Source: Salinivirgaceae bacterium
Lineage (GTDB): Bacteria; Bacteroidota; Bacteroidia; Bacteroidales; SZUA-534
Direction of reading: 5' to 3'
NCBI GenBank assembly: GCA_041664345.1
Contig: JBAYKX010000023.1
Location: 10,558 to 74,557, forward strand
Length of the DNA stretch: 64,000 bases
Both the position numbers and the translations under genes were made by a program. Positions within the stretch are counted from its first letter, which is position 1; each line of letters begins with the position of its first letter. Shown in pieces: positions 6,072 to 50,293 of the stretch. The notes beneath the pieces are model-generated. The model was given only the letters and a program-made list of their open reading frames with translations, was not told the origin of the DNA and did no database searches.

Positions 6072-6827
6072 CTACTTTTTATGTTGTACCATGGTGGACA
6101 TAATTTCCAGAAATTGGTTCTTCTTCCTGCGGGAAAGGAAAGCAACAGAACCATCATCCATAATTATTTCATTCCCTAAGCGGTTAATTTTTTTTACATG
6201 AAGCAAGTTTATAAGGTGCGATTGGTGAGGCCGGTAAAAAGGATGATCTTCCAGTAAACTCTCAAATTCGCCCAAATTTTTTGAAACCACCAATTCTGTT
6301 TGATCCAAAAATTTTAACGTGGAATAACTTCCTTCGGCTAATATCTGCACAATGTCCGATATATTAACAAATTCAATACTTTCCGAAGTGGAAAGGGCAA
6401 TTTTGTCCGGCTTACTGTTTTTAACATTGTCGAGCAAAAGGTTTATTTTGTCTTCCACTTTTTGATTGGTATTTGAACGGTGGATTTTTGACACAGCGGT
6501 AACCAGTTCGTCAATATCAATAGGCTTTAAGATGTAATCTAAGGCTGAATATTTAAAGGCTTTTATGGCATATTGGTTGTAAGCAGTTACAAAAATTACG
6601 TTGAAGTTCCGGTTAGGAAGTCCTTCAAGTACATCGAAACCAGTTCCTCCGGGCATTTCAATATCCAAAAAAACAATATCCGGTTCAACGGTTGGAATTA
6701 GTTTAATAGCCTCATTAGCAGAGTTTGCGGTTCCACTAATAACAATATCGGAAAAATGCTCTTGAATAATTAATTTTATTGATTCAATGGCATCTTGCTC
6801 ATCATCAACAATAACTACTTTATACAT
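6072..6827 (-). CDS. LytR/AlgR-family response regulator (receiver + LytTR DNA-binding domain)
   Basis: Receiver motifs VVIVDDE and FLDIEMPG; C-terminal LytTR domain. No histidine kinase gene is adjacent. Confidence 0.85.
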   Translation of the reverse strand: MYKVVIVDDEQDAIESIKLIIQEHFSDIVISGTANSANEAIKLIPTVEPDIVFLDIEMPGGTGFDVLEGLPNRNFNVIFVTAYNQYAIKAFKYSALDYILKPIDIDELVTAVSKIHRSNTNQKVEDKINLLLDNVKNSKPDKIALSTSESIEFVNISDIVQILAEGSYSTLKFLDQTELVVSKNLGEFESLLEDHPFYRPHQSHLINLLHVKKINRLGNEIIMDDGSVAFLSRRKKNQFLEIMSTMVQHKK

Positions 6828-6917
6828 ATATTTACCCTAAAAAAACACCCCTTTGCAGAATCAAACCCTGCAATTCAAATATACATTTTATTCCAGAATA
6901 TCTTCTTTTTATTTTTT

Positions 6918-7091
6918 ACCTAAGTTGAGCGATTTGACCCCGAGTCCTCGGGGGAAAAAACGCTTTACTTAGGTATAACCCCGACCTAGAAATTGTTACA
7001 ACATACCAAACAAATGGACAGCATAAAGTAAATTACTTACAATTTCTTAGTCGATTGAGTGATTTGCCCTTCCAAATCGCTCAATTTGGGT
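6918..7091 (+). mobile_element. MITE-like element, family B, copy 1
   Basis: Aligns end to end with the reverse complement of 42975-43139. Imperfect 19-bp terminal inverted repeat acctaagttgagcgatttg / caaatcgctcaatttgggt. Has internal hairpins and no ORF. Overlaps the 3' end of rsmI. Confidence 0.7.
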
Positions 7092-7766
7092 CTTATTATT
7101 AAAACCTTCTACAACAAGAACAATTTCACCTTTTATGGTTTTTTGTGAAAAATGTTCAATGGCTTGCGAAAAAGTTCCCCGATAGTTTTCTTCGTGCAAT
7201 TTCGAAAGCTCCCGGCTTACACATACATTCCGCTCCTCTTTAAAAAAGTCTTTTAATTGCTGAAGTGTTTTAATAAGCCTATGGGGTGATTCATAAAACA
7301 CCATTGTTCTGGGTTCAAATACCAGCCCCTCAATTCTTTTTTGACGGCCTTTTTTCTGTGGCAAAAAACCTTCAAAAGTAAAACGGTCGTTGGGTAACCC
7401 GGAATTGACTATTGCTGGAATTAATGCTGTTGCTCCGGGCAGACATTCAACATCAATCTCCTTTTCGATGCAGTGTTTCACAATTAAATAGCCCGGGTCG
7501 GAAATGCCTGGTGTTCCGGCATCGCTGGTCAAAGCTACTGAATTGCTTGCAGCAATGCGTTGGATCAAATTTTCGAGCTGTTTGTGCTCGTTAAATTTAT
7601 GATAAGGAAATAATTTGCTTTGTATCTCAAAATGTTTCAATAAAAAGCCGGTGGTACGGGTATCTTCGGCAAGTATAAAATCAACCGAGCGCAGCACATT
7701 CAAAGCCCTGAGCGTTATATCTTCAAGATTACCGATGGGCGTGGGAACAATATAAAGTTTGGGCAT
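7047..7766 (-). CDS. rsmI: 16S rRNA (cytidine1402-2'-O)-methyltransferase RsmI
   Basis: N-terminal LYIVPTPIGNLEDITLRALNVLRSVDFILAEDTR is the RsmI/tetrapyrrole-methylase signature. The last 14 codons plus the stop (7047-7091) are encoded by the family B repeat. Confidence 0.85.
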   Translation of the reverse strand: MPKLYIVPTPIGNLEDITLRALNVLRSVDFILAEDTRTTGFLLKHFEIQSKLFPYHKFNEHKQLENLIQRIAASNSVALTSDAGTPGISDPGYLIVKHCIEKEIDVECLPGATALIPAIVNSGLPNDRFTFEGFLPQKKGRQKRIEGLVFEPRTMVFYESPHRLIKTLQQLKDFFKEERNVCVSRELSKLHEENYRGTFSQAIEHFSQKTIKGEIVLVVEGFNNKTQIERFGRANHSID

Positions 7767-17606: not shown

Positions 17607-17788
17607 CAGGGAAATCGCTTTTAAGAATTTCAATTTTAAACACGCTTTTTCGGCGCATGGTTTTTCACAATTTCAATTAAACTGTAGTGCTTGCGCCGAT
17701 TTTATACCGCAAATTCATATACCCCGAGTTGAAACTCGGGACTATTCATATTAAATCCCTCCGGGATTTCTTAAAAGCGAATTCCCTG
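17607..17788 (+). mobile_element. MITE-like element, family A, copy 1 (182 bp)
   Basis: Terminal inverted repeat cagggaaatcgcttttaagaa / ttcttaaaagcgaattccctg with 1 mismatch. Flanked by a perfect 10-bp direct repeat gaacctaccg (17597-17606 and 17789-17798). No ORF. A second copy is inverted at 50110-50293. Confidence 0.8.
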
Positions 17789-20800: not shown

Positions 20801-22194
20801 TCCCCATCAGAAACTTGTACATATAAACTGAAATTTTGATTCTCTTCATAGTTGATTAAAGAAGAATCCATAACATAAATAACACCGGTCGAGTCAACTA
20901 CTCCAAATGCACCAGATGGATTTGCCTGAACAATAGAAAAAACATGGGTATCATTATAATCTTCGTCAGAAATTAAAATGGTATCAACAATTGAATTGTT
21001 TAAAGGATTTTCATCTATCAACTCTTGCAAATTATTGGTCAAAACTCTTTCATTAACATCATTAATTTTAATGTTGTAGCCTATGAGTTTGCTTGATGAT
21101 CCATCATATATTTTAATTATTGCGTACAATGAATCGTTTCGTTCAAAGTTAAAGTAACTTGAATCAATAATCGAAATCTGCCCTGTTTCACTATCTAATT
21201 TAATTGCATTATCATCATTCCCATCAAAGACCGAAAACTCTAGAATTCCATTACCATAATAATAAGCATCAACAGTATCAAGTATCTGATTATTATTTTG
21301 ATTTTCATTTATTTGGATTTCTTGATTATAAGTATAAAGTTCAGGCCCTTGATATTCATAAGCACCTATATCAATTCTTCCATATTGAATTCTTTCATTA
21401 CCTTCAAAATCATAATTAGTTATTAAAGAATCATTTGTAAAATTTGGGTCGCCCATATTTATGCAGGGTGATGTATTTTGTAACGCATAAGGATTTGCAC
21501 CGGAACCCACAAATAAAGGATCAACATCTATATTGCCATCAGCTTGTAATTGAGCCCCCACAATATCACAATTGGTTATTTTAGGAGTTGAGTTGTATGG
21601 ATCTAAATTTGCCTGCCCATTGCCTGAAACAATGCAGTTTGATATTTCAGATAAGGAGTAATTTATTTGAATTCCAGAAACTTGATTATCCGATATGGTA
21701 TTGTTTGTTATTTTAGGTGAAGAAAAATCACAACTAATACCAATCCAATAATTTTTTACAATTAGGTTCCCTTCGATTCGTGGAGATGCTTGATAACAAT
21801 AAATTGCTTCATTATTGTTACGTGTAATTAAATTATTAGCTACAATAAGTTTATTCATATTATAAACACACAGTGCACTACCATAGCCATCAAGCCAATA
21901 ACTGCCAAAGGCATTCCCAAACTGCATAATACAGAATTCAATTTTTGAAGTATCGTTTGAGCTGGGTGTTTCTAAAAACCGAATACCACCCCAACCACCA
22001 CTGATATAAGTCAATACCGAGTCTTTGGCTGTAAAAATTATCCTATTTTGTGCCGTTCCTTGGGCTAAAATCCTTCCTTGCACATTGAGTTTGTAATGCC
22101 CCTGAAACTCTACATAAACCCCCGGGTTTATGGTTAAGGTGCGGGCATTGTTAATGGTTAAGTTGTTATAACTTTTATGGTGTCGGCACTCCAT
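17824..22194 (-). CDS. C-terminal fragment of giant T9SS-secreted adhesin (beta-helix module 4, cadherin-like repeats, Kelch-like beta-propeller, more cadherin-like repeats, T9SS C-terminal domain)
   Basis: Its first residues (NNLTINNARTLTINPGVYVEFQGHYKLNVQGRIL) continue the repeat that the upstream ORF breaks off in. Cadherin-type domain ends are present (INDVNE, IDNVNE, LIDLNEKP, VTDMNDP). Kelch-like repeats (FWKYN..WT, FYEYNPATNQW). C-terminal IYPNPVRGFLHI... sorting domain. Confidence 0.8.
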   Translation of the reverse strand: MECRHHKSYNNLTINNARTLTINPGVYVEFQGHYKLNVQGRILAQGTAQNRIIFTAKDSVLTYISGGWGGIRFLETPSSNDTSKIEFCIMQFGNAFGSYWLDGYGSALCVYNMNKLIVANNLITRNNNEAIYCYQASPRIEGNLIVKNYWIGISCDFSSPKITNNTISDNQVSGIQINYSLSEISNCIVSGNGQANLDPYNSTPKITNCDIVGAQLQADGNIDVDPLFVGSGANPYALQNTSPCINMGDPNFTNDSLITNYDFEGNERIQYGRIDIGAYEYQGPELYTYNQEIQINENQNNNQILDTVDAYYYGNGILEFSVFDGNDDNAIKLDSETGQISIIDSSYFNFERNDSLYAIIKIYDGSSSKLIGYNIKINDVNERVLTNNLQELIDENPLNNSIVDTILISDEDYNDTHVFSIVQANPSGAFGVVDSTGVIYVMDSSLINYEENQNFSLYVQVSDGEFVDTSFVNIQIDNVNELICNPYKQLEIEENLPNDSIIYQLEAFDEDNDALNYTIVSGNISNVFDLNSTTGAIQIKNTQYLSYELNKSFNLKILVSDGQLIDSVKVDIDLIDLNEKPHLSDLVLNIPENPNNSTILDTLVAADEDFNSKLTYSIIHASLDKVFGVIDSTGVVYVIDSTAINFEENKTFELLTLVSDGELSDTAAITINILNINESIEFLDTEFSVLENQQNGTIIGSVVASDLDGDVLAHAIISGNLYNTFAINASTGGISVNNNLFLDYEVNPSFNLQVVAFDGEFSDTATITINLIDVDETGINPFRGIPRSSAVSFTIDNTVYVGLGENADSVLSDFWKYNAGTDVWTKVAPFPGAARTEAVAFAVNGKGYVGLGGSKYPFTYYPDFYEYNPATNQWTTLGNFAGTARYDAVSFVINDTAYVGTGADAMDETKDFWKYDAVHDSWSEIATFTGAKRTSACAFVVEGKGYVSGGVNYSNGTSQSSDIQEYNPATNSWQQKIFADGLHLSVNDATAIGIGNKGYICYGNKKDIVSYKPSTNQVENLGDLLNLGNNRNNPISFALGDSVYFGTGYYGFMTATYTNDIQSLYLPINYPPTDIQLSFASFAENLPDLSAISTLSTIDKNSNDSFTYELVVGEGSDDNTYFTIEGNQLKAYTQNFEAKNELKIRVKTIDSEGDSFEKGFVLTVTDMNDPITEIGYIGYTIYENMPLNTVVANLQVFDEDSQGNHSFELVDGIGSDDNNAFSIDGYNLLSGAEFNYEFKSKLYYRIKAIDEGNSSMERSFEVIINNVNEAPTDILLSNDTVFVSDMLGTVVGVLNVEDEDMNDSHTFEFTSDTQTNLDDTKNYTITGHNLVVNKTITTDKQLHELLIKASDLGGLTITCFFAILVKNDLGIKLLVEASEAFNIYPNPVRGFLHIKALNPVTKVQQVKVLDATGKIVFSNESVNLTKGINLSRLTTGNYFVVIATAEKIYYKKISIE

Positions 22195-25100
22195 ACTACA
22201 TCTTCATTGGGGAGTTCAAAATATTCATTTGAATTGAGTACATAAATTTCGGTAATGAGTGTATCGGATAAAACGCCATTGCTCACTTTTATCTTCAAAT
22301 GGTAGTTAGTTTCTGCCTGGGCCTCTGTTGGAACCCATTTTATTGTATCGTTTTCAATTGACAAACCACTCGGGGCCTCAATTATGGTGTAAGTTACTCC
22401 TGAAGGAAAACTTATCGGTTTTATTGCTTCTGCATAAACGGAATCAAAACGGATGTGCTTTTTTCTGATTGTACGGAAAACTAAAAACGAATCAGGGTCG
22501 CTTTGCAGTTCGTATGCACCCATATCAATTGTAGGGTTTGTTCCCCCTTCGTAAATCCTTGGGTTACCGGCTATGTCCATGTTTATTTCCAAACTATCCG
22601 TATCCCAATCGGGTCGCCCGGAATTTAAACAAGGTGATGTTTTTTGTAACGCATAAGGATTTGAACCGGATACCACAAATAAAGGATCCACATCTATATT
22701 GCCATCAGCTTGTAAATTAGCTCCCACAATATCGCAATTGGTTATTATAGGAGTTGAGTTGTATTGTTCTAAATTTGCCTGCCAATTTCCTGAAACAATG
22801 CAGTTTGTAAGTTGCGGAGACGAGCTTTGTAAAGATATTCCACAATAACCTTGATTATCCGATATGGTATTGTTTGTTATTTTAGGTGAAGAATTATAGC
22901 AATTAATACCATTCCCATAATTTTTTACCATCAAGTTCCCTTCAATTAATGGTGATGCATTATTACAATAGATTGCAGAATTCCAACTAGATGATCTGTT
23001 TTTTGCAATTAAATTATTGGTAATTTTAATTTTGTCAAAACCATAAATACATAATGCGCCTCCATGACCATCAAGCCCATCACTGCCAAAGGCATTCCCA
23101 AACTGTATGATACAGAATTCAATTTTTGATGTATCGTTTGAGCTGGGTGTTTCTAAAAACCGAATACCACCCCAACCTCCACTAGTATCAGTTAATACCG
23201 AGTCTTTGTCTGTAAATGTTATCCTGTTTTGTACCGTTCCCCGTGCTAAAATTCTTCCTTGTACATTTAATTTATAATGCCCCTGGAATTCCACATAAAC
23301 GCCTGGGTTTATGGTTAAGGTACGGGCATTGTTAATGGTTAAGTTATTAATAACTTTTATGGTGTCGGCACTCCATACAACATCTTCATTGGGGAGTACA
23401 AAATATTCATTTGAATTGAGTACATAAATTTCGGTATTGAGTGTATCGGATAAAACGCCATTGCTCACTTTTATCTTCAAATTATAGTTTGTTTCTGCCT
23501 GGGCCAATGTTGGAACCCATTTTATGGTATCGTTTTCAATTGCCAAACCACTTGGGGCTTCAATTATGATGTAAGTTACCCCTGAAGGAAAACTTATCGG
23601 TTTTATTGCTTCTGCATAAACGGAACCAAAACGGATGTGCTTTTTCCCGATTGTACGGAAAACTAAAAACGGATCAGGGTCGCTTTGCAGTTCGTAGGCA
23701 CCCATATCAATGGTAGGGTTTGAACCAAAAGTATAAATCCTTGGGTTACCGGCTATGTCCATGTTTATTCCCAAACTATCCGTATCCCAATCGGGGCGTC
23801 CGGTATTTAAACAGGGTGATGTATTTTGTAACGCATAAGGATTTGCACCGGAACCCACAAATAAAGGATTTATATCCATATTGCCATCAGCTTGTAAATG
23901 AGCCCCCACAATATCGCAATTGGTTATTTTAGGAGTTGAATAGTATTGAGCTAAATTTCCATCCCCATTGCCTGAAACAATGCAGTTAGTAAGTTGCGGA
24001 GAGGAACTAACTAAATATATCCCATAATCTTGATTATCCGATATGGTGTTGTTTGTTATTTTAGGTGAAGAATTATCACAATAAATACTATAATAATAAT
24101 TTTTTACAATTAGGTTCCCTTCGATTCGTGGAGATGCATGATAACAAAAAATTGTGTAGTATCTGTTACGTATAAATAAACTATTAGCTACAATAAGTTT
24201 ATTCATATTAGAAACACACAATGAACTTCCAAATTGATCGAGCCAATCGTCACTGCCAAATGCATTCCCAAACTGCATAATACAGAATTCAATTTTTGAA
24301 GTATCGTTGGCACTTGGTGTAGAATAAAACCTAATTCCACCCCAACCACCACTGGTACCAGTTAATATTGAGTCTTTGGCTGTAAAAGTAATTCTGTTTT
24401 GTGCCGTTCCCCGGGCTAAAATCCTTCCTTGTACATTGAGCTTGTAATGCCCCTGAAACTCCACATAAACCCCCGGGTTTATGGTTAAAGTGCGGGCATT
24501 ATTAATGGTTAAGTTATTAATAACTTTTATAGTGTCGGCACTCCATACAACATCTTCATCGGGGAGTTCAAAATATTCATTTGAATTGAGTACATAAATT
24601 TCGGTATGGAGCGTGTCGAATAAAACGCCATTGCTCACTTTTATCTTCAAATTGTAGTTTGTTTCTGCCTGGGCCAATGTTGGAACCCATTTTATGGTAT
24701 CATTTTCAATTACCAAACCACTTGGAGCCTCAATTATGGTGTAAGTTATCCCTGAAGGAAAGCTTATCGGTTTTATTGCTTCTGCATAAACGGAACCAAA
24801 ACGGATGTGCTTTTTTCCGATTGTACGGAAAACTAAAAACGGATCGGGATTGCTTTGCCGTTCGTATGCGCCCATATCAATTGTAGGGTTTGTTCCCCCT
24901 GTGTAAATCCTTGGGTTACCGGCTATGTCCATGTTTATTCCCAAGCTATCAATATCCCAATCGGGTCGCCCGGTATTTAAACAGGGTGATGTATTTTGTA
25001 ACGCATAAAGATTTGAACCGGAACCCACAAATAAAGGATCTGCATCTATATTGCCATCAGCTTGTAAATTAGCTCCCACAATATCGCAATGGGTTATTTT

Positions 25101-25690
25101 AGGAGTTGAATTGTCTTGGTATAAATTTCCATACCCATTGCCTGAAACAATGCAGTCTGTTATTTCAGGAAAGGAACTATCAAAAATATTAATACCATAA
25201 CCTCCATTATCCGATATGGTATTGTTTATTATTTTAGGTGAAGAATTATTGCAACTAACACCAGTCCAATAATTTTTTACAATTAAGTTTCCTTCAAATA
25301 GAGGTGATGCATTATAACAATAGATCGCTTCATTATTGTTATGTGTAATTAAATTATTAGCTACAATAAGTTTATTCATATTATAAACAAACAATGCACT
25401 ACCAACTCCATCAAGCCAATCGCTGCCATAGCCATTTCCATATTGTATAATACAGAATTCAATTTTTGAAGTGTCGTTTGTATTTGGTGTATCAATAAAC
25501 CGTATGCCATGCCAACCACCACTGGTATCCGTTAAAACAGTATCCTTTGCCGTAAAAGTTATCCTATTTTGAGCCGTTCCCCGGGCTAAAATCCTTCCTT
25601 GTACATTTAGTTTGTAATGCCCTTGAAATTCCACATAAACACCCGGGTTTATGGTTAAAGTAATGCCATTATCCACAGTAATTTCTCCGG
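21340..25690 (-). repeat. Tandem ~1.17-kb intragenic repeats (about 3.6 copies)
   Basis: The anchor string atggttaa recurs at 25651, 24481, 23311 and 22130, giving spacings of 1170, 1170 and 1181 nt. Long stretches are identical between copies by eye. Confidence 0.9.
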
Positions 25691-25850
25691 TTACTTTTAC
25701 GGTGTCGGCACTCCAGGTTTCGTTGGTGGTAATGTTTCCGCTTTTTTCAATTACAGTTTGGGCTTGTAGGGTTGTGCCCAATAAAAAAATAAATGGGAGT
25801 AGTAGATTCTTCATTTGTGCTATTTTGTTTAAAAAACCTTGGATGCTCAA
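22158..25850 (-). CDS. N-terminal fragment of the same giant adhesin (signal peptide + three tandem beta-helix/Ig-like modules)
   Basis: The likely real start is the ATG at 25814 (MKNLLLPFIFLLGTTLQAQ); the track start at 25850 is a TTG. Contains three ~390-aa near-identical modules. The ORF ends in ...VVWSADTIKVITT*, where intact modules read ...VVWSADTIKVINNLTINN. Confidence 0.8.
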   Translation of the reverse strand: MSIQGFLNKIAQMKNLLLPFIFLLGTTLQAQTVIEKSGNITTNETWSADTVKVTGEITVDNGITLTINPGVYVEFQGHYKLNVQGRILARGTAQNRITFTAKDTVLTDTSGGWHGIRFIDTPNTNDTSKIEFCIIQYGNGYGSDWLDGVGSALFVYNMNKLIVANNLITHNNNEAIYCYNASPLFEGNLIVKNYWTGVSCNNSSPKIINNTISDNGGYGINIFDSSFPEITDCIVSGNGYGNLYQDNSTPKITHCDIVGANLQADGNIDADPLFVGSGSNLYALQNTSPCLNTGRPDWDIDSLGINMDIAGNPRIYTGGTNPTIDMGAYERQSNPDPFLVFRTIGKKHIRFGSVYAEAIKPISFPSGITYTIIEAPSGLVIENDTIKWVPTLAQAETNYNLKIKVSNGVLFDTLHTEIYVLNSNEYFELPDEDVVWSADTIKVINNLTINNARTLTINPGVYVEFQGHYKLNVQGRILARGTAQNRITFTAKDSILTGTSGGWGGIRFYSTPSANDTSKIEFCIMQFGNAFGSDDWLDQFGSSLCVSNMNKLIVANSLFIRNRYYTIFCYHASPRIEGNLIVKNYYYSIYCDNSSPKITNNTISDNQDYGIYLVSSSPQLTNCIVSGNGDGNLAQYYSTPKITNCDIVGAHLQADGNMDINPLFVGSGANPYALQNTSPCLNTGRPDWDTDSLGINMDIAGNPRIYTFGSNPTIDMGAYELQSDPDPFLVFRTIGKKHIRFGSVYAEAIKPISFPSGVTYIIIEAPSGLAIENDTIKWVPTLAQAETNYNLKIKVSNGVLSDTLNTEIYVLNSNEYFVLPNEDVVWSADTIKVINNLTINNARTLTINPGVYVEFQGHYKLNVQGRILARGTVQNRITFTDKDSVLTDTSGGWGGIRFLETPSSNDTSKIEFCIIQFGNAFGSDGLDGHGGALCIYGFDKIKITNNLIAKNRSSSWNSAIYCNNASPLIEGNLMVKNYGNGINCYNSSPKITNNTISDNQGYCGISLQSSSPQLTNCIVSGNWQANLEQYNSTPIITNCDIVGANLQADGNIDVDPLFVVSGSNPYALQKTSPCLNSGRPDWDTDSLEINMDIAGNPRIYEGGTNPTIDMGAYELQSDPDSFLVFRTIRKKHIRFDSVYAEAIKPISFPSGVTYTIIEAPSGLSIENDTIKWVPTEAQAETNYHLKIKVSNGVLSDTLITEIYVLNSNEYFELPNEDVVWSADTIKVITT

Positions 25851-41728: not shown

Positions 41729-42900
41729 ATGAGAACCGCATTAACAAGCTTGAATATTGCCGGTTTAGTACTTGCATTATTATTCATTTCGCTCATACTT
41801 TTAAAAAAGGATAAGCAACTCCGCGATTATCTGTTGGCATTTTTTATATTCCTGCTCGGCACATTTTTACTCATTAAGTATGTGTTTCAGTTTGATTTGT
41901 ACAACACCTATCCAATTATTATTTATTTAGATATCTATTATTGGGTATTACTAGGTCCTACATTATATATTTACACATTGGTTTCAACCAGAGGGGAAAA
42001 CCACTTCCGTAAAAATTACCTTTTCACGTTAATTCCTGCTGCATTGGTAACCATCTGTTTTTCGCAATATATTTTTGGGAATGCAGCCGATCTGTTTAAC
42101 AATTGGGATAATTTACCAACAATCGCAATAGTTGGTGTTTACATCTGGCTTTGGAATTCTCCTGTTTTCTACTTGCTAACAATATTGGCAATTCGGAAAC
42201 ATCAAAAGAGCATTAAAAATCACTTCTCGTATTCAAAAACAATTGACCTTAACTGGCTGAATTACCTATCACACGGCTATGCTATTTTTATACTTTTTAT
42301 AATCACACGCGGAATAATACGCAATTTATCGGGTTGGGATTTATCTATTGATAATTATAGCCTAAGCCTCGCAACAGCTTTTATATACATATTTGGGATA
42401 GGTTTTTTTGGTTACCGCCAACGTGGGATTTTTGACAACTATAAAGATATTGCCATTCCGATTAATAATCGCGAAATGCAAAAAACATCGGATATTAAAG
42501 AAGATCGTTATCAATTGTCCTATCAAAAATCGGGATTAAATGATGCGGAAGCCCAACGAATTATTAACAAACTTGAACGGGTTATGCAATCGGAGGAACT
42601 TTACCTTGAAGCGAACTCTATCTGGCGGCCCTTGCCGAAAAGGTTGATGTATCGACTCACAAGCTATCTCAGGTAATTAATGAATACCTGAATAAAAACT
42701 TTTTCGATTTTGTTAACGAATACCGGATTGAACGGGCAAAAGAATTTTTGTTGGACCCGGCATATAATCAATTAAAAATAGTTTCGCTTGCCTATGATAG
42801 CGGTTTTAGTTCAAAATCGACCTTTTATACCACGTTTAAAAAAGCGGAAGGAATTACTCCGGCAGAGTATCGGAAAAAATACCAGCAAAAAACAGCATAA
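41729..42900 (+). pseudogene. Membrane-bound AraC-family regulator, frameshifted before the HTH domain
   Basis: The 315-aa multi-TM ORF ends at 42676 in a nonsense tail. Frame 1 from 42616 reads LYLAALAEKVDVSTHKLSQVINEYLNKNFFDFVNEYRIERAKEFL...FSSKSTFYTTFKK..GITPAEYRK and stops at 42898-42900, a complete AraC HTH. The total span of 1172 nt is one short of a multiple of 3. Confidence 0.75.
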
Positions 42901-42974: not shown

Positions 42975-43139
42975 ACCCAAATTGAGCGGTTTGGAAGGGC
43001 AAATCACTCAATCGACTAAGAAATTGTAAGTAATTCACTTTTTACTGTTAATCTTTTTGGTGAGCTACAACAATTTCTAGGTCGGGGTTAAACCTAAGTA
43101 AAGCGCTTTTTCGCTGCGCTTAAATCGCTCAACTTAGGA
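42975..43139 (-). mobile_element. MITE-like element, family B, copy 2 (inverted relative to copy 1)
   Basis: Its reverse complement aligns with 6918-7091, and the terminal ~65 nt are almost identical. It has the same terminal inverted repeat. The internal hairpin cassette differs. Confidence 0.7.
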
Positions 43140-50109: not shown

Positions 50110-50293
50110 CAAAGAAATCGCTCCTAAAAAATCCCGTTAGGGATTTAATATGAATAGCCCTGGGTTTCAACCCAGGGATCAAGTTTTCATGGTATAAAAT
50201 CGGCGCAAGCACTACCGTTTAATTGAAATTGTAAAGAAACCATGCGCTGAAAACGGGAATTAAAAATTGAAATTTTCCCAAGCGATTTCTCTG
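50110..50293 (-). mobile_element. MITE-like element, family A, copy 2 (184 bp, inverted)
   Basis: Aligns along its whole length with the reverse complement of 17607-17788. Termini caaagaaatcgct / agcgatttctctg. The hairpin stems differ from copy 1 by paired (compensatory) substitutions. Confidence 0.75.

Follow-up and report, generated by a model that had tools for sequence, protein, structure and literature searches.

The window, i.e. the whole stretch of 64,000 nt that was analysed, corresponds to positions 10558-74557 of contig C23 in a genome of 5.57 Mb and 127 contigs (G000). Its minus strand carries rsmI (7047..7766; 239 codons and a TAA stop codon), predicted to code for the 16S rRNA C1402 2'-O-methyltransferase, and downstream of rsmI a gene for a LytTR-type response regulator (6072..6827, minus strand). 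At the sequence level the assignment as RsmI is supported by the TP_methylase fold and by full-length similarity to characterised RsmI proteins. Residues 3-201 match Pfam TP_methylase (PF00590) with an E-value of 6e-29, the E. coli RsmI structure 5hw4 aligns with residues 2-223 (E 4e-61), and 16S rRNA (cytidine1402-2'-O)-methyltransferase is the name that thousands of homologues bear in their sources. Beyond residue 223 no similarity to solved RsmI structures remains. G000 has a single rsmI; the other match is a 30%-identical paralogue, which is also present in all relatives.

The 239-aa open reading frame ends in ...VVEGFNNKTQIERFGRANHSID, also written ...KGEIVLVVEGFNNKTQIERFGRANHSID. Its codons 1-225 (7092..7766, minus strand), up to ...VVEGFNNK, are the native part of the gene and are collinear through K225 with the orthologues of the two closest relatives, G002 (95% identity of RsmI) and G006 (91%). 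Codons 226-239, which read TQIERFGRANHSID, and the TAA stop codon (7047..7091, minus strand) belong to a MITE. This copy of 174 nt occupies 6918..7091 on the minus strand with its ACCCAAATT end toward rsmI. The gene-proximal terminal inverted repeat ACCCAAATTGAGCGATTTG lies at 7073..7091 (minus strand), its gene-distal counterpart ACCTAAGTTGAGCGATTTG at 6918..6936, reading inward on the plus strand. The element is flanked by a target-site duplication, which is imperfect, with AAG on the gene side (7092..7094, minus strand; the codon of K225) and AAA with one mismatch on the far side (6915..6917, minus strand). Codon 226 starts with base 7091. Thus the edge of the element coincides with a codon boundary, as the initial annotation had stated, and the codon of K225 runs directly into TQIERFGRANHSID and the stop.

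That the last 14 codons and the stop codon of rsmI are donated by the terminus of the element had been claimed, with reference to a second copy, and this claim held. The window contains the 45-nt terminus including the stop in exactly two places, 7047-7091 (minus strand) and 42975-43019 (plus strand), with a chance expectation of zero. The second occurrence opens copy 2 of the same family (42975..43139, plus strand), and the two copies align across the entire element, about 170 nt. Copy 2 is intergenic, 75 nt from the closest ORF end at 42900, and preserves the stop-containing frame with a single synonymous difference, CGA to CGG. Just upstream of copy 2, at 41729-42900, an AraC-type regulator is apparently split into a 315-aa and a 50-aa ORF, the latter carrying the end of the HTH domain.

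The reading frames of the element were examined from both ends. In the frame of rsmI the ACCCAAATT end of this subfamily offers 14 open codons (TQIERFGRANHSID) followed by TAA, and the two remaining frames are closed after 17 and 2 codons. For a gene reading in from the ACCTAAGTT end, stops follow after 1, 17 and 2 codons. Because all six entry frames stop within at most 17 codons, any gene struck near its 3' end would soon be closed. The rsmI copy is predicted to fold more strongly than shuffled sequence, with -62.8 and -65 kcal/mol on the two strands and z-scores of -6.4 and -8.8, and a strong predicted hairpin covers the last 12 codons of rsmI and the stop. Rfam returned nothing meaningful across 6700-7300 of the window, no intrinsic terminator was predicted within or near the element, and promoter-like matches near it occurred only at chance level.

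The empty site and the displaced native tail

The site was compared in 30 related genomes. An rsmI orthologue was found in all 30, and no match goes beyond query residue 235, those to residues 231-235 mostly running past a stop codon. Homology to the orthologues ends at ...VVEGFNNK, where the initial annotation had expected it to end. The gene order in G002 and G006 is that of the window: a protein of 333-356 aa, rsmI and the LytTR response regulator. The RsmI proteins of the relatives have different ends. RsmI of G002 has 233 aa and ends ...VVEGFNNKKEKEDILE, that of G006 also has 233 aa and ends ...VVEGFNNKKEKEESIE (last residues KEKEESIE*), and that of a third congener ends ...FKNKMEEEEQSEEN*.

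The uninterrupted allele, which had been proposed as a check, is thus present in the two nearest relatives. In G002 the DNA reads ...GGTTTTAATAATAAG AAA GAA AAA GAA GAT ATT CTG GAA TAA AATGTATATTTGAAT..., while in the window it reads ...GGTTTTAATAATAAG (174-nt element) AAA AAA TAA AAA GAA GAT ATT CTG GAA TAA AATGTATATTTGAAT... The sequence before AAA GAA in the relatives is ...AATAATAAG. G002 and G006 are without exactly 174 + 3 nt and have a single AAG at the site. Hence the element sits directly after K225 (AAG), eight codons upstream of the native stop and not at or just before it, as had been assumed. Beyond the far-side triplet the displaced native 3' end is still legible at 6888..6914 (minus strand) as AAA TAA AAA GAA GAT ATT CTG GAA TAA. 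Its intact counterpart encodes KEKEDILE*. The initial annotation had left it undecided whether the native C-terminus was replaced or extended. It was replaced, in that the eight residues KEKEDILE are lost and 14 others stand in their place; 'merely extended' does not describe a swap with a net gain of 6 residues. On the evidence of these alignments the insertion postdates the split from the closest sampled relative, which keeps the empty site. Empty allele, target duplication, new tail and old tail are all visible, and the case can be fully reconstructed.

We propose the following course of events. A non-autonomous cut-and-paste transposon (a MITE of 174 nt with 19-nt terminal inverted repeats) entered the late coding sequence of rsmI directly after K225, eight codons short of the native stop, with AAG being duplicated as the 3-bp target. 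A DDE transposase acting in trans, possibly of IS1380 type, would have moved it. The ribosome would since pass from K225 into the terminal hairpin module of the element, translate 14 codons and terminate at TAA, and the native KEKEDILE*, shifted 177 nt downstream, would now be untranslated. We are confident that an insertion after K225 has replaced the native tail of RsmI in this way.

Compared with both relatives the far junction carries two substitutions: the G of the duplicated triplet has become A, and in the remnant GAA has become TAA. The latter raises a different order of events, in which the nonsense change came first. GAA to TAA would have shortened RsmI to ...NNKK* (226 aa), the MITE would have landed one codon earlier, and it would have replaced only 'K*', which matches the picture of the initial annotation. 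Apart from the AAA TAA of the remnant, where the relatives have AAA GAA, this order suits the habits of the family, since 14 of its 57 copies in G000 lie on a stop codon or no more than 3 nt away from one, and a landing beside a stop fits. On the other hand, the TAA occurs in no sampled relative. Moreover, the neighbouring intergenic DNA diverges similarly, the 58-nt spacer beside the remnant having about 7 differences from G002, and two changes in the 12-nt remnant are expected from drift after displacement. The remnant substitutions are hence in keeping with neutral drift. With its in-frame TAA the remnant is compatible with either order of the two events, yet we consider the nonsense-first order unlikely and favor the view that an intact rsmI was struck.

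Next to be weighed is a misjoined contig, in which assembly through a repeat would have brought rsmI next to an element that is not truly beside it. The genome is a draft of 127 contigs, and repeats of the family do break contigs elsewhere (ends of C86 and C107). Against this, the DNA on either side of the element follows the uninterrupted locus of the relatives collinearly, displaced remnant included; a chimeric join would not yield collinear flanks together with the gene's own displaced tail. Furthermore, two assemblies that differ in source contain the exact 239-aa RsmI, namely ENA ERZ27249449 on a 76.9-kb contig and JGI metagenome 3300037810 on a 1.8-kb contig, and the JGI contig is identical to the window across the entire 291-nt junction region. 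An assembly artefact is therefore very improbable.

Between rsmI and the response-regulator gene the relatives have 58 nt; the insertion has lengthened this spacer to 219 nt in the window. A TATATTTG box lies at 6876-6883 (minus strand), 49 nt upstream of the start of the regulator gene. It is conserved in G002 and, being located beyond the insertion, has been retained. TAnnTTTG is the -7 promoter consensus of Bacteroidota, and we take TATATTTG at 6876-6883 to fit this box. With the box retained beyond the element the response regulator may keep its own promoter.

Consequences for RsmI

The tail TQIERFGRANHSID was searched for, whole or in part, among the 120 best RsmI homologues and was absent from all of them. 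Orthologues free of the repeat that shared the tail would have spoken for a native C-terminus; among these 120 there was none. What follows the KGEIV(L/I)VVEG strand in these homologues is a tail of 2-20 residues that is rich in lysine and glutamate and not conserved, and many of the proteins end 2-3 residues past VVEG. As tails are this variable and homology to solved structures ends at residue 223, the swap affects only a dispensable appendage outside the fold. The predicted methyltransferase fold is left intact by the insertion. The remainder of the ORF is intact as well, at 95% identity to the nearest orthologue with neither frameshift nor stop. Thus a mobile element has indeed altered rsmI, yet the initial wording of a conserved housekeeping gene being remodelled was too strong, as only the short, variable and hydrophilic tail beyond the fold has changed.

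The intrusion might still be harmful, if the new tail or the hairpin destabilised the protein or the mRNA and rsmI were heading toward a pseudogene. A 12-bp stem of the very stable structure calculated at -62.8 kcal/mol takes in the stop and the last 12 codons, and RNase III cleavage and non-stop decay have been raised for a MITE-extended enhC (PMC5896051). Yet all other parts of the ORF have remained intact at the identity given above, natural RsmI tails cover a range of 2 to 20 residues, and the allele is present in two assemblies. We consider decay of the gene quite improbable. RsmI most likely stays functional, and the 239-aa protein is presumably made and active. In all likelihood the insertion is neutral and tolerated rather than adaptive; because a strong hairpin over the end of rsmI could affect mRNA processing or the efficiency of termination, this neutrality is what we infer. 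The case is of use mainly for annotation, in that residues 226-239 of RsmI come from a transposon and are not to be taken as a conserved motif.

The element family, its gene-end bias and its distribution

A BLAST search of G000 with the element gave 57 merged intervals, 30 of which are full length (164-197 nt). Almost all full-length copies begin at the base equal to 7091 of the window and finish at that equal to 6918 or 6917. These common ends establish 6918-7091 as the true limits of the element, in agreement with the initial annotation. The copies open with ACCCAAATTGAGCGATTTG and close with CAAATCGCTCAACTTAGGT, an imperfect 19-nt terminal inverted repeat in which ACCCAAATTGAGCGATTTG and ACCTAAGTTGAGCGATTTG agree at 17 of 19 positions, and this is kept in the 30 copies. 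Of the 30 copies, 23 have the same 3-mer on both sides and the other seven agree at two of three positions; the next three bases outward, taken as a control, matched in one of 30. A/T-rich triplets were duplicated (TTT, AAT, ATA, GTA, TTA, TAG and others). Alignment revealed a modular architecture with a terminal hairpin at either end, a central hairpin that exists as two co-varying versions, an optional 21-nt hairpin insert and a G+C hairpin in two versions. The element is thus small, non-coding and multicopy, with inverted repeats, a 3-bp duplication and an empty orthologous site, as is characteristic of a MITE. Apparently, this Bacteroidales family has so far not been described.

Short derivatives of 44-89 nt in G000 consist of little beyond the two termini (C52:19147-19104, C2:77130, C10:15557). 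In addition, the genome holds 43 unpaired termini, many of them terminal hairpins of about 40 nt (ACCCAAATTGAGCGATTTG-N6-CAAATCNGCTCAAT) with a REP-like look. Mobilisation as REP/BIME by a RAYT was considered, as such solo hairpin units of about 40 nt do occur, and was rejected because of the clear 3-bp target duplication. The window contains further repeats. A second, unrelated MITE family forms an inverted pair at 17607-17760 and 50139-50293, and four tandem repeats of about 1.17 kb, 72-94% identical, lie at 21441-25719 within a very large ORF region, presumably a repetitive adhesin.

For 14 of the 57 copies, an ORF of 120 aa or more has its stop codon inside the element or at most 3 nt from its edge; by the same criterion 1.4-2.3% of random intergenic points are near stop codons. 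Examples are C5:105568-105742, C14:39543-39717 and C49:26850-27015. Several copies have duplicated the very stop codon of a gene, e.g. TAG at C5:105568, which leaves that gene as it was. The rsmI copy is the deepest intrusion into a gene, with 42 coding nt and the stop. Two causes, alone or together, could produce the bias, a target preference for A/T-rich triplets and purifying selection that removes deeper hits. A bolder reading is that the family is tuned to gene ends, as a 'safe-landing' element that serves its host genes as a structured 3' UTR. The bias in 14 of 57 copies, the stops near both edges in most frames and the conserved hairpin modules point in this direction, yet we hold it to be unlikely. 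If it were true, an element at a gene end would influence how stable the mRNA is or how far transcription reads into the following gene, at rsmI that of the LytTR regulator, and the family might mark an IS1380-type subgroup with 3-bp duplications and a 19-nt terminus shared across phyla. The family accounts for many odd gene ends in Salinivirgaceae-like Bacteroidales genomes.

The terminus, with one mismatch allowed, was counted 59 times in G000, 65 times in G002, 43 times in G009, 22 times in G011, 140 times in G012 and 113 times in G016. It was absent from the congeners G003-G006 and from all other sampled families of the order. The family is therefore patchy. G002 carries it elsewhere than at the rsmI site, and the family has been active after the split of G000 and G002. 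In public genomes, similar elements with the exact 19-mer at their ends are present in many MAGs of Bacteroidales, Salinivirgaceae and Lentimicrobium. Outside Bacteroidota, the exact 19-nt ACCCAAATTGAGCGATTTG delimits small elements whose interiors are unrelated, in MAGs of Scalindua, Nitrospiraceae, Anaerolineaceae, Desulfatibia and others (contigs L023, L028, L049, L050, L069, L092 and L105; in L049 the terminus directly adjoins a tRNA gene). Either a transposase of very wide distribution or contamination in binning could account for this.

The reverse derivation must be mentioned here, i.e. that TQIERFGRANHSID is the native tail of RsmI and the repeat family borrowed its terminus from the 3' end of rsmI. 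The sequence identity itself agrees with it, and nothing further does. The same terminus bounds dozens of copies with target duplications, it is found in many other Bacteroidales genomes and even in other phyla, and it is missing from the rsmI of every relative. The RsmI ends of the relatives and of the 120 best homologues already refute a rsmI origin of the terminus, which is thus extremely improbable.

A search for the autonomous parent in G000, with terminal inverted repeats paired at a distance of 600-4000 bp, gave no pair with a transposase; four such pairs were rejected because they were adjacent independent copies or enclosed ordinary genes. In 96 public loci with the terminus no pair surrounds a transposase. 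The only public candidate, L039, turned out to be two MITEs on either side of a lipoprotein-like gene and was discarded, and the terminus loci from other phyla have no neighbouring transposase. These searches are limited by the MAG of G000, whose smallest contig is 2.7 kb and from which collapsed IS copies may have been dropped. An IS982 parent was rejected since G000 has no such transposase and NF033520 scored above the cut-off only in G003 and G005, genomes devoid of MITE termini. For IS1380, too, no PF13701 gene was present in G000 or the MITE-rich relatives, all MAGs without short contigs, and what speaks for such a parent is the end architecture.

Comparison with known systems

Within the same order G044 carries an IS1380-type element (L119 1381-3010, L139 and L141) with a 447-aa ORF (PF13701, E 1.4e-40) and 19-nt ends ACCTAAAAATCTAAAATGG...CCATTTTAGATTTTTAGGT (ACCTAA...TTAGGT). 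All three complete copies are flanked by 3-bp target duplications, TCT, AAC and ATA. The duplication usually quoted for IS1380 is 4-5 bp. The MITE resembles the G044 element in its ends (ACCTAAGTT.../ACCCAAATT...), in the 19-nt length of its terminal inverted repeat and in the 3-bp duplication, but only the first 6 nt of the repeat agree. The TTGAGCG core was found in 0 of 20 IS1380 loci of the order, and the G044 transposase has no homologue in the MITE-rich genomes. Parentage by IS1380 is thus suggestive and unproven. The ends of the MITE also begin with AC as do those of IS982, and the ends of a bona fide IS982 copy in G005 (L129), ACGTAAGTTCGA..., resemble ACCTAAGTTGAG... That copy, however, makes a 7-bp duplication instead of 3 bp. 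The genomes with IS982 transposases, G003 and G005, are free of the MITE, and none of the MITE-rich genomes has such a transposase.

The RPEs of Rickettsia, the Correia elements of Neisseria and the RU/ERIC repeats of enterobacteria are familiar cases of short mobile palindromes that genes tolerate, internally or at their ends, and that contribute peptide segments. RPEs enter proteins in frame without terminating them, and Correia elements generate a TA duplication and are noted mainly for promoter, terminator and RNase III effects. The rsmI MITE family is not known to have sequence in common with any of these.

The closest parallel is that of QMITE1 and QMITE2 of Coxiella burnetii, which overlap the 3' ends of ubiB, pntAA, mutT, nagZ, recN, ruvB and enhC, supply final residues and the stop, and in one case add a C-terminal extension of 33 residues to EnhC; all affected functional genes were struck at their 3' ends (PMC5896051). 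Overlap of MITEs with the 3' ends of functional genes is hence already known, rsmI is a further instance, and neither the knowledge of RsmI nor that of MITEs is altered by it. As with the QMITEs, a small non-coding element with terminal inverted repeats has donated the last residues and the stop codon to a housekeeping gene, while host phylum, element sequence and parent differ. Unlike in the Coxiella cases, both the empty allele and the displaced tail are visible at rsmI, so that the residues which were replaced can be named.
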